This document shows positions 26,568 through 54,847 of a stretch of DNA of 64,000 nt, piece after piece. The position numbers and the translations under genes are program-made. Where the stretch lies: NCBI GenBank assembly GCA_003153155.1, contig PLWV01000019.1:1137-65136 (forward strand), in the 5' to 3' direction. The stretch's first letter is position 1, and each line of letters opens with the position of its first letter. This stretch comes from Gallionella sp. (GTDB lineage: Bacteria > Pseudomonadota > Gammaproteobacteria > Burkholderiales > Gallionellaceae). The notes below the pieces were generated by a model that saw only the letters and a program-made list of their open reading frames with translations, did no database searches and had not been told where the DNA came from.

Positions 26568-27071
26568 CTATTTCTTTTTGATATAAGCCTCGACGCTTGC
26601 GCGCGTCACTTCACCCGCCTGATAGCTCACCTGCTCACCCTTGGGGTTATACAAATAGCTGACCGGCAGAACCTCTACCGCGCCTATCTGGGCAGTGATC
26701 TTGCGATTACCCATCACCACCGGATAACTGATGCCATGTGCCTGGGCAAAGTCGGCGACTTTTCCGCTCGAGCCTGAATCCATCGCAACACCGATCACCG
26801 ACAAATCCTTATCCTGATGCGCGTTATGCAAGCTGATCAGTTCGGGTATTTCGTTCAAGCACGGCGGACACCAGGTTGCCCAAAAATTCACCAGCACCCA
26901 CTTGCCACGATAATCCGACAAGCGGTGCGTTTTGCCCTGCATATCCTCCAGCGAAAAATCCGCGGCATAGCCGGCCCATGAGCAAGCTAGCAAAAGTGCG
27001 AACAGCAAGCCTGTCCTGATGAAACTACTGATAGGACTACTGATGAAACCACTGGTGAAACGACTAGCCAT
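26568..27071 (-). CDS. TlpA-family thiol:disulfide oxidoreductase (start uncertain, 5' end invaded by repeats)
   Basis: LVNFWATWCPPC..EIPEL; hydrophobic signal RTGLLFALLLACSWAGYA; the frame stays open through the upstream repeat array. Confidence 0.85.
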   Translation of the reverse strand: MASRFTSGFISSPISSFIRTGLLFALLLACSWAGYAADFSLEDMQGKTHRLSDYRGKWVLVNFWATWCPPCLNEIPELISLHNAHQDKDLSVIGVAMDSGSSGKVADFAQAHGISYPVVMGNRKITAQIGAVEVLPVSYLYNPKGEQVSYQAGEVTRASVEAYIKKK

Positions 27072-27160
27072 CCCACTAAGCAACCAGAAGACGGTTGCCA
27101 AGTGGTTGGTTATAGCCATTCGACTAAGCTGGCAAACAACGCCAGCTAAGTCGCTGGTTA
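27017..27160 (+). mobile_element. Array c of the 60-bp element family: 4 leaders + 2 hairpins (144 bp)
   Basis: TGATGAAACTAC-TGATAGGACTAC-TGATGAAACCAC-TGGTGAAACGAC, then two TAGCCA...TGGTTA hairpins, splitting GTCC^TGAGC (host family 2). Confidence 0.85.
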
Positions 27161-29909: not shown

Positions 29910-30608
29910 ATGAACAACGCCCACGAAGCTCGCCGGATGTTACGCGCCCATCGCTACGGCGCGCTGGGCACCTTGTCGAAAAAATTCGATGGTTACCCGT
30001 TCGGCTCGATTACGCCTTACCTGGTGGATCACGATGGCAGCCTGCTCATCCTTATCAGCACCCTCGCCGAACACACCAAAAACATCCGGCACGACCCGCG
30101 CGTCAGCCTGATCACCCATGACCAGCGCGACCCGCATATCCAGACCCAAGGTCGTGTGACAGTAGTTGGCAACGCCCGGCTGGAGCCGAATCGAGAACAG
30201 TCCGGACTGCGCTATCTGCGCTATTTCCCGGAAGCGCAGGCTTACTTCGCCATGCACGATTTTTCTTTCTACCGCATCCGCCCCGTTGCCATCCGCTACA
30301 TCGGCGGCTTCGGGAAAATTCACTGGGTTAACATGGAAAATTATGCGGTGCAGCCCTACCCTTTGATCGAACAAGAATCCGACGTGATCGCGCACATGAA
30401 CACAGATCATCAAGACGCTTTGCAAAACTACTGCCAGCACTTCCATCAATGCGCAGCGCTGGATATAGCAATGCTGGGCATAGACCTTGACGGTTTCGAT
30501 GTGCGCGCCGATGGCAAAGTGTTGCGGTTTGATTTTGCGCAAGCAGTGTTTGATGCTCAACAGGCGCGGACAGCACTGGTTGAAATGGCGCGTGCCGCCA
30601 AACAATAG
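29910..30608 (+). CDS. HugZ/pyridoxamine-5'-phosphate-oxidase-like protein
   Basis: GYPFGS, ISTLAEHTKNI..DPRVSL, RYIGGFGKIHW, VIAHMNTDH, GID.DGFD. Confidence 0.88.
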   Translation: MNNAHEARRMLRAHRYGALGTLSKKFDGYPFGSITPYLVDHDGSLLILISTLAEHTKNIRHDPRVSLITHDQRDPHIQTQGRVTVVGNARLEPNREQSGLRYLRYFPEAQAYFAMHDFSFYRIRPVAIRYIGGFGKIHWVNMENYAVQPYPLIEQESDVIAHMNTDHQDALQNYCQHFHQCAALDIAMLGIDLDGFDVRADGKVLRFDFAQAVFDAQQARTALVEMARAAKQ

Positions 30609-30790
30609 CGTAGTGCGCACAAACAAAGTGCAAGACTGCACACCCATAGTCCTTGGTCAAGCTCAGGAGCGAGTTGCTGAGCTTATTATCAGAGCTTGTC
30701 TTGCGAAAAAACCGGGAAATGACCAGAGTTGAAAAAGTGCTGAACATGTACCGTTCGCCCTGTTGCTACCGGACGAACGGTGTATATAAC

Positions 30791-30910
30791 TGGTGGAACT
30801 ACTAGCCATCTGACTGATGAAACCCCTAGCCATTCCACTAGGTTGTCAAAGAACGACAACCAAGTGGCTGGTTATAGGCTGTCCAAAAACGACAGCCAAG
30901 TCATTGGTTA
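30791..30910 (+). mobile_element. Array d: one 60-bp element nested inside another (120 bp)
   Basis: Leader1-TAGCCATCTGAC-[leader2-TAGCCATTCCAC...AGTGGCTGGTTA]-TAGGCTGTC...AGTCATTGGTTA. Outer TGAC/GTCA and inner CCAC/GTGG arms match only under nesting. Confidence 0.85.
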
Positions 30911-30934
30911 TAGCTTTGAAGGACTGGCGACTGG

Positions 30935-31651
30935 TTAGAAACGGAAACCCAGTTTGGCACTGTAGGATGGTGCTGAACCGGTCTTGTCATATTCCAGGGC
31001 AAAATTCACAAGTCCAAAGTTGAGATTGCCACCCGCAAAAATTTTATTTTGCCGGAAAGTTTCTTTCACTAAAGATGCCGCATTCGGTGTGCTGTCAACC
31101 CAGACAGAGCCTAGCCCAGCATATGGGGTAAATATCGCAAAACCTTTGGAAATAGAAACATCCAGACTTTTGGTACTGAATGCCAGTTGACTCACTCCGC
31201 TCAATTTAGTCAACGCACCGCGAATGCCGACTGCGGGTAAAGCCACACCCCCTTCAAGTATGGCATAGCGTAATTCCCCGCCATAAAGCTTGATATTGGT
31301 ACTTGGTACGGCGGAGTAAAAAGCGCCAATATCGAAGTTAAGAGGCAGGCCTTTAAAGACATGCAACTTCGGCACAATCATGGAATTCAAAGCGCTGCCG
31401 CCATTTGTGGCTTTAGACCATAGTGCCGAGTTTTGCATTTTAGTCGAAGTCACTTCCAGACCCAGTTCAAAACCTGTCACGCCCAGTGGAGCTGGCGGGG
31501 TGACCGGTTTATAGCTTAATGCCGAACCTAAATCTTCGGAGAACAACTTGAATTCAGGCTGAGCCAAACTGCCCAAGGTACTGATGTTGGCCGCCAACAC
31601 AGGTTGTGCAAAACAGCCCAGGACGCATAGCAATGATAAGTTTTTCTTCAT
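30935..31651 (-). CDS. Hypothetical exported protein, probable outer-membrane beta-barrel
   Basis: Signal MKKNLSLLCVLGCFAQPVLA, alternating beta-strands, C-terminal LGFRF. Confidence 0.75.
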   Translation of the reverse strand: MKKNLSLLCVLGCFAQPVLAANISTLGSLAQPEFKLFSEDLGSALSYKPVTPPAPLGVTGFELGLEVTSTKMQNSALWSKATNGGSALNSMIVPKLHVFKGLPLNFDIGAFYSAVPSTNIKLYGGELRYAILEGGVALPAVGIRGALTKLSGVSQLAFSTKSLDVSISKGFAIFTPYAGLGSVWVDSTPNAASLVKETFRQNKIFAGGNLNFGLVNFALEYDKTGSAPSYSAKLGFRF

Positions 31652-31773
31652 GATGTGAGCCTTTCTTGTAGTTGGTGGTAATTTACACTGCACCGGCGTC
31701 AGCATAGCGCACTTATCGTTTCCGTGTCCACCGGGCTCCGCGCGCGCACAGTAGCCCGTTCAGAAAAAATGAA

Positions 31774-51667: not shown

Positions 51668-51694
51668 CTGCTGCGCTTATCGTTCCCACGCTCT

Positions 51695-51811
51695 TGATGA
51701 AACACCTGATGAAACCACTAGCCATCTGACTAAGCTGCAAAAATCGCAGCAAGTCATTGGTTATAGCCATTCCACTAGGTTGTCAAAGAACGACAACCAA
51801 GTGGCTGGTTA
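51695..51811 (+). mobile_element. Array e: 2 leaders + 2 hairpins (117 bp) inside a GTTCCCACGC/GCGTGGGAAC palindrome (host family 3)
   Basis: tatcgttcccacgctct [TGATGAAACACC-TGATGAAACCAC-hairpin-hairpin] tgcgtgggaacgata. Confidence 0.85.
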
Positions 51812-51825
51812 TGCGTGGGAACGAT

Positions 51826-51851
51826 AAAAAAGCCCCTCTTGCGAGGGGCTT
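51826..51851 (-). terminator. Terminator downstream of pilA
   Basis: AAGCCCCTC-TTGC-GAGGGGCTT with a 6-A run on +. Confidence 0.8.
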
Positions 51852-52933: not shown

Positions 52934-53050
52934 TAACCAGCCACTTGGTCGGCGTTTTTTGCCGGCCTAGTGGAATGGCTATAACCAATGACTTGCTGCG
53001 TTTTTTGCAGCTTAGTCAGATGGCTAGTGGTTTCATCAGTTGTTTCATCA
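52934..53050 (-). mobile_element. Array g: 2 leaders + 2 hairpins (117 bp) in a family-3 host, inverted relative to array e
   Basis: Minus strand atcgttcccatgctc [TGATGAAACAAC-TGATGAAACCAC-hairpin(TGAC/GTCA)-hairpin(CCAC/GTGG)] cgcgcgggaac. Confidence 0.85.
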
Positions 53051-53071: not shown

Positions 53072-54847
53072 CTATGAATCCAGGTTGACACCCGGAATCT
53101 TGCCCAAATCCACATCGTCTATCTGTTCGGGCGCAAGAAATTGTTTGGCATAGTCGAGATAGACTTTTTCGCGCATGAAGACATCGAACAAATCGGGGTC
53201 GATATGCCCGCCCAGTTTGAACTTGCCGAGAATGGTCAGGGATTCGGTGAGGGTTTTACCTTTTTTGTAAGGTCTATCCTTGGCGGTGAGCGCCTCGAAA
53301 ATATCGGCGATGCCCATGACTCTGGCTTGCACCGACATCTGTTCGCGCGTCAGCCCGCGCGGATAGCCCTTGCCATCCATGCGTTCATGATGCCCGCCGG
53401 CATATTCGGGGACGTTTTTGAGATGTCTGGGCCAGGGCAGCGATTCCAGCATTTTGATGGTGACATCGATGTGATGGTTGATGATTTCGCGTTCCGCCGC
53501 CGTCAATGTGCCGGCGCGTATGGTGAGATTTTCGACTTCATCTTCACTGAGAAAATTGCTCGCCTTTCCATCACCATCGCGCCATTGATAGGTGGCGATC
53601 TGGCGCACACGTTGCTGCGCCTCTGCAGACATTGCCTCGCTGCCGACGTTACAGTGCCGCAGAAATTCACGGTCATCATCGAGTTGCCGGATGCGCTCCG
53701 CGTACTCGGCATGGATAGGTGTGACCGCTTCACTTTTACCCCCTCTGATGGAACTACTAGCCATCTGACTAGGCTGTCCAACAACGACAGCCAAGTCATT
53801 GGTTACCCCACCCTCCCCCTTCAAGGGTGAGGGAGTTGCCGCAATTTCGCGCAGCCCCCGCAAGGGGGACACCGATGGGTGCCCGGCAGCTTCGCTGCCA
53901 CCCTCTCGCAGCATTTCAATTTCGGCATCGCGCTTGAGCACCTCGAAACGCGTGTCCAGCAAATGAATTCGATCGAAGAGAGTATGCAGTTTGGTCGCCT
54001 TATCCACCACATGCACCGGTGTGGTGATCTTGCCGCAGTCATGCAGCAAGCCGGCGATCTTTAATTCGCGCCGATCTTTCTCGGTCATCACAAAATCTTT
54101 GAGCGGGCCTGATGTGGTGCGATTGACCGCTTCGGCCAGCATCATGGTCAGTACCGGCACGCGCTCGCAATGGCCGCCGGTATAAGGAGACTTGTCGTCT
54201 ATCGCGGTATTGATGAGTTGGATGAAGGACTCAAACAACTCTTCCAATTGATCGATGAGATGACGATTAGTCAATGCAATGGCCGCCTGCGAAGCGAGCG
54301 ATTCCAGTAACTGTTGGTCATCCCTTGAGAACGGGACGATCGCGCCGCTTTCCTGATCTTGCGCATTGATCAATTGCAACACCCCGATGACCTCATTCTC
54401 GTGGTTGCGCATCGGCACGGTCAAAAAGGACTGGGAACGATAACCGGTCTTGGCATCAAATTTTTTGGTGCCGGAAAAATCGTAGCCCTCCGCCATATAA
54501 GCATCGGGAATATTCACAGTTTCACCGCTAAGTGCCGAGTGGCTCACCACCATGGCGTGATTGGGCTTGCCAGCAGCATCGTAAAGCTGAATCGGATAAA
54601 AGGTAATCGGTACGCCGCTGGTTCCGCCCATCGCCTTATTCAGCGTATTGTTGCGCAAAATTTCAAAGCGCAACACTCGCTGCTCCTGTTCGTGCAGATA
54701 GAGCGTGCCGGCATCAGCGTGCGTAATGCGCATCGCCGCTACCAGAATGGTTTCCAGCAAGCTGTTGAGATCGCGCTGTTGAGACAGGGCAATGCCAATC
54801 TCATTGAGATCTTTGAGGCGATGCAGAAGGTTGTCAGAAGAATGCAT
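53072..54847 (-). CDS. GAF-HD-GYP c-di-GMP phosphodiesterase with repeat-derived insertion
   Basis: GAF (YRSQSFLTVPM.NH..EVIGVLQLINA), YTGGHCERV, LHDCGK, HHERMDGKGYP. Confidence 0.92.
   Translation of the reverse strand: MHSSDNLLHRLKDLNEIGIALSQQRDLNSLLETILVAAMRITHADAGTLYLHEQEQRVLRFEILRNNTLNKAMGGTSGVPITFYPIQLYDAAGKPNHAMVVSHSALSGETVNIPDAYMAEGYDFSGTKKFDAKTGYRSQSFLTVPMRNHENEVIGVLQLINAQDQESGAIVPFSRDDQQLLESLASQAAIALTNRHLIDQLEELFESFIQLINTAIDDKSPYTGGHCERVPVLTMMLAEAVNRTTSGPLKDFVMTEKDRRELKIAGLLHDCGKITTPVHVVDKATKLHTLFDRIHLLDTRFEVLKRDAEIEMLREGGSEAAGHPSVSPLRGLREIAATPSPLKGEGGVTNDLAVVVGQPSQMASSSIRGGKSEAVTPIHAEYAERIRQLDDDREFLRHCNVGSEAMSAEAQQRVRQIATYQWRDGDGKASNFLSEDEVENLTIRAGTLTAAEREIINHHIDVTIKMLESLPWPRHLKNVPEYAGGHHERMDGKGYPRGLTREQMSVQARVMGIADIFEALTAKDRPYKKGKTLTESLTILGKFKLGGHIDPDLFDVFMREKVYLDYAKQFLAPEQIDDVDLGKIPGVNLDS
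53746..53805 (+). mobile_element. 60-bp element, copy h (in frame, antisense within the HD-GYP gene)
   Basis: TGATGGAACTAC-TAGCCATCTGACTAGGCTGTC-CAACAAC-GACAGCCAAGTCATTGGTTA in a family-1 REP. Confidence 0.85.

Follow-up and report, generated by a model that had tools for sequence, protein, structure and literature searches.

A nested array of 60-nt hairpin elements in Gallionella and the self-nesting of the LMS family

The 120-nt array at positions 30791-30910 of the window (the whole 64,000-nt stretch of DNA from the iron-oxidising Gallionella sp. that was analysed) probably arose in two site-specific insertion events, one after the other, of a non-autonomous hairpin element of 60 nt, with an HUH/Y1 transposase as a guess at the enzyme. 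We consider it very likely that the nest was made by insertion, and likely that both insertion steps took place at this locus. The nested reading is well supported by the pairing of the stems, by a guest core shared with other loci, by uninterrupted paralogues of both elements and by an empty site in the species G024. Across the family, insertion was precise, free of target duplication, co-oriented with the host element and confined to fixed positions.

Structure of the nested array

The repeated unit is referred to here as LMS, after its 12-nt leader (L), its 12-nt left arm (M) and its 36-nt hairpin with right arm (S). The array and its surroundings comprise the following features.

29910-30608, + strand: upstream flanking gene, encoding a PNPOx/DUF2470 'heme utilisation' protein; 182 nt separate its end from the array
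30750-30781, + strand: host hairpin ACCGTTCG...CGAACGGT, adjoining the insertion site upstream and kept in the nearest species
30791-30802, + strand: L1, 12-nt leader of the outer (host) element, TGGTGGAACTAC; the same leader precedes the near-identical uninterrupted copy C4:45815
30803-30814, + strand: M1, 12-nt left arm of the outer element, TAGCCATCTGAC, with TAGCCA as stem-1 arm and TGAC as stem-2 arm
30815-30874, + strand: entire guest element, 60 nt, CCAC-type, at the M^S junction of the outer element
30815-30826, + strand: L2, leader of the guest, TGATGAAACCCC
30827-30838, + strand: M2, left arm of the guest, TAGCCATTCCAC
30839-30874, + strand: S2, hairpin and right arm of the guest, 36 nt, TAGGTTGTCAAAGAACGACAACCAAGTGGCTGGTTA
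30875-30910, + strand: S1, hairpin and right arm of the outer element, 36 nt, TAGGCTGTCCAAAAACGACAGCCAAGTCATTGGTTA (TAGGCTGTCC...GTCATTGGTTA)
30935-31705, - strand: downstream flanking gene, convergent, encoding a hypothetical protein of 256 aa for which no Pfam family is recorded; 24 nt separate its end from the array

The flanking genes are convergent, so that the array lies between two gene 3' ends. Positions 30791-30910 were parsed without gaps into six modules, L1-M1-[L2-M2-S2]-S1, and the C at 30790 is a chromosomal base which gives a C^T junction at L1. When the arms are assigned to each other as a nest, both stem-2 pairings are complete (TGAC of M1 with GTCA of S1, 4/4; CCAC of M2 with GTGG of S2, 4/4), whereas the crossed assignment yields only 2/4 and 2/4 pairs. 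This order of modules (first leader, left arm, second leader, complete hairpin, rest of the first hairpin) and the entry of the second copy into the first at GAC^TAGG had both been proposed in a first-pass annotation of the window; the order was confirmed by the parse, and the entry was supported by the arm pairing. The junction carries an ambiguity of 1 nt (GAC^TAGG or GACT^AGG), since T is both the first base of the guest and the base with which the host sequence continues. The hairpin pattern itself was matched four times in the window against an expectation of zero.

In the single-stranded DNA fold of the + strand, both the MFE and the centroid structure closed M1 on the 3' end of S1 (30803-30814 with 30900-30910) around two inner hairpins (z = -3.9). 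The outer closure was not formed in the fold of the - strand; because of an invariant G-T pair in stem 1, only the top strand of an element folds fully.

Excision of 30815-30874 in silico left an intact 60-nt outer element. The restored 48-nt core of this element was identical to those of the uninterrupted copies C22:19370 and C10:37044 and differed by one mismatch from C4:45815 and from the solo copy at window 53746-53805. The 48-nt core of the guest was found without change at C16:329837, C18:23915 and C19:110858, in each case nested at the M^S junction of a different host, as well as in an un-nested copy at window 51764-51811. Altogether, at least five different hosts carry this guest core at M^S. 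The paralogous copies of the outer and guest elements represent the 'empty' and 'donor' states of the insertion.

The LMS family and its entry positions

A normal LMS element is a gene-less 60-nt unit in which M is TAGCCATnnnnC and S ends with TGGTTA. M and S together form one long hairpin, consisting of stem 1 (TAGCCA/TGGTTA), a variable stem 2 of 4 bp, an internal loop (TAG / YAA), a variable stem 3 of 6 bp and a 7-nt loop. The earlier statement that all modules measure 12 or 36 nt held roughly: S is 36 nt long in ~70% of the copies and 30-37 nt long in the others (33 nt in array e, described below), and a second type of leader has 8 nt. The genome, a 2.75-Mb draft of 30 contigs with 95% completeness, contains 315 LMS copies, of which 219 carry a 12-nt leader, 48 carry the 8-nt leader GCTTTGCA (K-type) and 48 are leaderless. 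A second micro-element, the 28-nt G-type (GCCGAAGAACTTTTGGCCGGGCACCCGA), is unrelated to LMS and present in 98 copies; both families together make up 0.75% of the genome.

Compensatory changes were observed at 10 of the 16 stem pairs of LMS, far above all shuffled and slid controls. A total of 143 cells were altered on both sides and 97.4% of the cells were paired, this percentage, unlike the number of pair types, being inflated because the copies had been picked for pairing. LMS elements were detected in 21 of 24 congeneric species, with 0 to 158 L-M junction matches within the genus, and the 16 genomes examined from the order's other families had none. When 185,579 species were scanned, matches came only from Gallionellaceae, Nitrosomonadales and Burkholderiales metagenome-assembled genomes and from Ferrigenium. 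The LMS family is restricted to Gallionellaceae.

The first-pass annotation had proposed to parse all arrays with a nesting grammar. In an iterative procedure, complete elements were removed and the genome was rescanned, an element being counted as restored when it was seen only across an excision point. Removal of the inserts restored 79 interrupted elements. The guests had entered at five fixed positions of LMS, and at one of the G-type element:

LMS position 12: L^M junction, 16 cases
LMS position 24: M^S junction, as at 30791-30910, 27 cases
LMS position 34: apical loop, G-type guests, 24 cases
LMS positions 37-38: apical loop, AAAG^ACG, K-type guests, 24 cases
LMS position 54: GTCAT^TGGTTA, 7 cases
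G-type element position 13: CTTT^TGGCC, 14 cases

Guest and host lay on the same strand in all 134 pairs; already in the first parse, 33 of 34 multi-element arrays had a single orientation. Among 413 elements, 117 were located inside another one (100 of them one layer deep and 17 two layers deep), which is a ~40-fold enrichment given the 0.75% genome coverage. Such a handful of fixed entry positions in the family's own hairpin indicates that the family preferentially targets itself. Three-layer nests also occur, e.g., at C10:3211-3300, where a G-type element at position 34 of the LMS apical loop has itself been entered by an LMS element at CTTT^TGGCC.

Contiguous M-L-M-S-S arrays were found at 12 places in the genome, nine of them informative because their arm types differ. 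In 9/9 of these, the nested pairing was perfect and the crossed pairing poor. Six other species contributed ten further M-L-M-S-S arrays, eight of them informative, and seven of the eight were perfect nests, the remaining one being degenerate. The entry positions and the orientation rule were the same at loci of other Gallionellaceae, where nesting was far rarer (five restored hosts among 145 elements, 138 LMS-type and seven G-type).

The entry positions are used by different subfamilies. The M^S guests were of CCAC type in 27/27 cases in this genome and in 10/10 cases in the six other species, in which the stem-3 sequences differ, while CCAC types represent about a third of the leader-type copies. 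CTGAC/CCCAGC types use L^M, CTCAC types use GTCAT^TGGTTA (7/7), and types with the leader GCTTTGCA use the apical loop. None of the 64 TCGAC-type copies occupied L^M or M^S of another LMS element. In a comparison of relative age, guests were only weakly more similar to other copies than hosts were (12 vs 7, p = 0.07).

At the left end, 178 of the 219 copies with a 12-nt leader showed a C^T junction and 30 a T^T junction. The base at -1 was C in 184 and T in 31 of the 219, which leaves Y^T as the sole conserved part; different entry positions have different tetranucleotides. K-type copies start at G^A or A^A (AAAG^ACG), not at C^T, and the right end of LMS is A^T, not C^T. Target duplications were absent, and removal of the guests restored the hosts exactly, with an ambiguity of at most one T. 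No bias with respect to the replication strand was seen (74 arrays on the G-rich and 75 on the C-rich strand). A mutual-information scan for a base-pairing rule between guest and target gave only an association of subfamily and context. Targeting of chromosomal hairpin loops was considered and rejected: two of 69 isolated copies lay in the loop of a stem of at least 8 bp, without general enrichment over random C^T sites.

Besides the nest, the window contains further LMS arrays and copies:

27017-27160, + strand: array of four leaders and two hairpin bodies (CCCAC type, then TCGAC type)
51695-51811, + strand: array e, L1 [L2 M(TGAC) S(33 nt)] M(CCAC) S, which reads as a guest at the L^M junction
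52934-53050, - strand: array g, with the architecture of array e on the opposite strand
53746-53805, + strand: solo uninterrupted 60-nt element of the outer-element subfamily, with one core mismatch

The last body of array e is identical to the guest at 30815-30874. The first-pass annotation had explained arrays e and g by insertion after the first leader, and this was supported by the solo copy C16:295339, which shares the leader (TGATGAAACACC) and the host repeat and whose CCAC-type body has three mismatches to that of the array. All three are centred in one host palindrome, ATCGTTCCCACGCTC^TGCGTGGGAACGAT (window 51678-51694 and 51812-51826), a separate repeat family serving as a landing site; further recurrent landing repeats are ACATTTCATCCCAAC^TGCTGCGTTGCGTAA and CCGTTCGCCC^TGAGCTTGTCGAAGGG.

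In some frames the arrays contain no stop codon, and 19 arrays genome-wide (15 co-oriented, four anti-oriented) are located within long open frames. The reverse strand of 27017-27160 runs in frame into what we read as an apparent lipoprotein-type signal peptide, and the open frame over this array is either an annotation hazard or a real N-terminal extension. In keeping reading frames open, LMS arrays present such a hazard more generally.

History of the locus and alternative origins

We infer the order of events at the locus as follows. In a first step, a TGAC-type copy would have entered the chromosome at ...TATAAC^TAG... between the two convergent genes. In a second step, a CCAC-type copy would have entered the resident copy in the same orientation at GAC^TAGG, in the internal loop between the lower and upper stems, and would thereby have separated the two arms of the resident copy's lower stem from each other.

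In the nearest available species, G024, whose flanking gene shows 86% identity, the site is empty although the host hairpin has been kept, GGTGTGTAAC^TGACTTTGCAGAACGG (GGTGTGTAAC^TGACTTTG). Remoter species have unrelated spacers at the orthologous position, as does strain L180, whose downstream flanking protein is 95% identical. In G024 (L010), the region orthologous to window 30609-30650 carries a reverse K-type (CGGC) element in a GTCGGGC...GCCCGAC palindrome, directly after the stop codon of the upstream gene.

A single-copy intermediate in strains or metagenomes had been suggested as a check on the nest. Public assemblies were searched with the flanking proteins themselves and with eight variants from their 90% clusters, the predicted single-copy junction being CCATCTGAC|TAGGCTGTCC after ...GTATATAAC TGGTGGAACTAC. 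More than 20 related strain contigs (flanking protein at least 97% identical, many from metagenomes) carried the nest or a deletion derivative, usually with the guest leader TGATGAAACTCC. One metagenome scan for the predicted junction gave no match; a second, with the unique left flank, gave two contigs, one with the nest and one, a record of the deletion lineage, ending inside the array. Thus, only the nest or its deletion derivative was recovered at the locus, and the single-copy intermediate was found neither in the strain contigs nor in the two scans. For this reason the term 'direct evidence' of sequential, precise insertion, used in the first-pass annotation, was too strong, although insertion as such is well supported.

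The lineage L160-L162 shows an exact deletion of 36 nt between the direct repeats GACAACCAAGT and GACAGCCAAGT of S2 and S1 (GACARCCAAGT; orthologous to window 30860-30900), which leaves M1-L2-M2 with one chimeric hairpin. The array is therefore also remodelled by recombination or slippage. The contig L172 (JGI 3300039499; orthologous to 30815-31705) has another left flank in front of the guest and S1, made up of a membrane-protein gene, the leader TGATGAAACAAC and an M1 (TAGCCATTCGAC) that does not match S1. Either the identical guest led to a chimeric assembly, or two nested loci have undergone a real rearrangement with each other. The Logan short-read contigs L158, L159 and L163 end inside the array, which indicates that the elements break assemblies. 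LMS arrays do so at this locus, and they may mediate rearrangements.

Since no intermediate was found, the composite could have arrived ready-made: both steps would have taken place elsewhere, and the 120-nt composite would then have moved as a unit into TATAAC^TAG, without a single-copy stage at this site. We regard this course of events as rather unlikely. The two ends of the outer element are intact, which should leave the composite able to move, composites of almost the same sequence occur at several loci (a TGAC/CCCAGC host with a TGATAAAACTAC-CCAC guest at C2, C6, C8 and C14), and the result from the more than 20 strain contigs fits with it. However, the host-guest pair of 30791-30910 is unique in the genome, and the presence of one guest core in at least five different hosts requires repeated independent entries anyway.

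An origin without any insertion, by unequal crossover, slippage or gene conversion among the 12-nt-phased modules of a tandem array, is very improbable. Such processes do act on LMS arrays, as seen from the 36-nt deletion fusing S2 and S1 in L160-L162 and from tandem duplications of leaders, e.g., of a 24-nt unit at C4:45754. The array C4:45754-45825 has six leaders for only two hairpin bodies, with a leader pair of 24 nt repeated; this surplus means that leaders also multiply alone, by slippage or as remnants. But neither slippage nor a single unequal crossover produces M1-L2-M2-S2-S1 with matched arms, the arm types fit nesting in the 9/9 and 7/8 informative arrays, the junctions fall on a few exact positions, and the M^S guests always belong to one subfamily. 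Together with the uninterrupted paralogues and the empty site in G024, these arrays uphold the earlier preference for insertion over slippage duplication.

Hardly any weight is given to the view that the units are a functional structured RNA or a regulatory site, and the arrays selected modular assemblies instead of selfish ones: the strong covariation of the stems with an invariant G-U-compatible pair and the many copies near gene ends would suit it, but the arrays are oriented evenly to the neighbouring genes (37 co-oriented vs 37 anti-oriented), an Rfam 15 covariance-model search of the array gave best matches of E >= 3, far under the gathering scores, presence or absence differs between species at orthologous sites, and copy number varies widely within the genus.

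Candidate enzymes and related systems

The elements are presumably moved by a trans-acting enzyme that reads the folded single strand and then cuts and rejoins it at fixed positions; the predicted circle junction of LMS is TGGTTA|TGATGAAAC. RAYT and IS200/IS605 enzymes work on single-stranded DNA hairpins and do so without target duplication. By analogy, an HUH/Y1 tyrosine transposase of the RAYT or IS200/IS605 kind is a tentative candidate for the mobilising chemistry. The TnpA(REP) of E. coli needs C|T on single-stranded DNA and cuts, for example, TGCC|TGAT (PMC3333891; see also PMC8266576). The candidate is favoured by the hairpin dependence, the strand asymmetry, the lack of duplication, the C^T junction and the presence of three Y1 genes in the genome (C3:6889-7626, C19:91047-91601 and C9:168996-169361). 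It is opposed by the RayT genes having REPs of their own, by the lack of LMS near Y1 genes and of a GTAG motif, by the K-type and right-end junctions, which are not C^T, and by the missing strand bias. No LMS element was found within 2 kb of any of 29 Y1 genes (three in this genome and 26 in five other element-rich genomes). Element-bearing genomes without a Y1 match, e.g., G015 and G055, also count against this candidate.

The genes C19:91047-91601 and C9:168996-169361 of this genome (G000) are RayT-like, and each is bracketed by inverted GTAGGGTGG-type REPs (GTAG-type), as in classical REPtrons, a family distinct from LMS. C3:6889-7626 is a 246-aa IS200-like Y1 gene without obvious flanking repeats. 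Two other enzymes were rejected: PF01548, as a marker of IS110 (bridge RNA, DEDD transposase), had no match in the 95%-complete genome, and the single IS91-like gene of the genome has no LMS nearby. No paralogous gene family adjoins the arrays, and a longer, autonomous element sharing the LMS ends was not found.

It is conceivable, if improbable on present data, that the subfamilies, which differ in leader and lower-stem type, each find an unpaired position of their own in the hairpin by guide-like recognition encoded in the element, with a trans-acting enzyme moving single-strand units of 56-60 nt without duplication. If so, self-nesting would be a safe-haven strategy. To our knowledge, micro-elements of less than 100 nt that move without a known enzyme (SDRs, CGTC-type REPs and others) are an old loose end in bacterial genomics. 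The order and the specificity of insertions can be read from each LMS nest, and the hundreds of copies, the labels in the stems, the five exact positions and the subfamily use shared across species make the mechanism testable.

LMS elements resemble REP/BIME sequences in being abundant extragenic hairpins with conserved foot sequences and variable, co-varying stems (PMC3333891, PMC8266576, PMC3116915). REP/BIME arrays, like LMS arrays, are modular with fixed linkers, and RayT genes are present in this genome. RAYT cuts C|T on the single strand beside the hairpin, and a model of excision and reintegration at alternative C|T sites has been described (PMC3333891, PMC8266576, PMC3116915). However, LMS lacks a GTAG (or CGTC-type) tag and has (C)TAGCCA as its foot. 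Unlike in REPINs and BIMEs, the units are arranged as direct and not as inverted pairs, as follows from the common strand in 134/134 pairs. Unlike in a REPtron, no RAYT gene is flanked by LMS (0/29), and neither the K-leader copies nor the right end lie at C|T.

With IS200/IS605 elements and their gene-less derivatives (PATEs), LMS shares the lack of target duplication, strand specificity, hairpin dependence and a target immediately 5' of the left end. It departs from them in having a single hairpin where they have two subterminal hairpins, in lacking both a conserved target tetranucleotide and a lagging-strand bias (74:75), and in that no full-length element shares the LMS ends. IS608 and ISDra2 do show a replication-strand bias.

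Like MITEs (Correia/NEMIS, RUP, Nezha, Chunjie; PMC3184786), LMS elements are short, non-autonomous, hairpin-folding and located beside genes. MITEs have terminal inverted repeats and target-site duplications and originate from DDE insertion sequences (PMC3184786), whereas LMS has neither a duplication nor a matching insertion sequence, and its leader lies outside the hairpin. Di Nocera et al. (2013) reported REPs lodged in dedicated palindromic target repeats (PMC3733652), and many LMS copies are likewise embedded in other repeat families of the genome. Unlike those REPs, LMS has its own hairpin as the preferred target, which is entered at fixed internal positions and in up to three layers.

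Elhai et al. reportedly described, in Genome Research in 2008 (18:1484), the small dispersed repeats SDR1-8 of Nostocaceae, gene-less repeats of 21-27 nt that are nested in one another and in other repeats; no transposase is known for them. Nostocaceae SDRs are also mentioned in PMC5861425. The likeness of LMS to SDRs is one of behaviour only. SDRs are cyanobacterial and 21-27 nt long, and LMS elements measure 56-60 nt and belong to Gallionellaceae. Moreover, an LMS element consists of three modules with a long hairpin whose stems co-vary, and it is entered at five fixed positions, which guests use according to their subfamily. In behaviour, the Nostocaceae SDRs and the REP/BIME arrays appear to be the nearest described systems. 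By their defining features, LMS appears to be neither a REP/RAYT system, a MITE, an IS200/IS605 derivative nor an IS110 element. It is best called a small non-autonomous hairpin element, which is distinguished by a clear grammar of self-nesting and by subfamily-specific entry positions.
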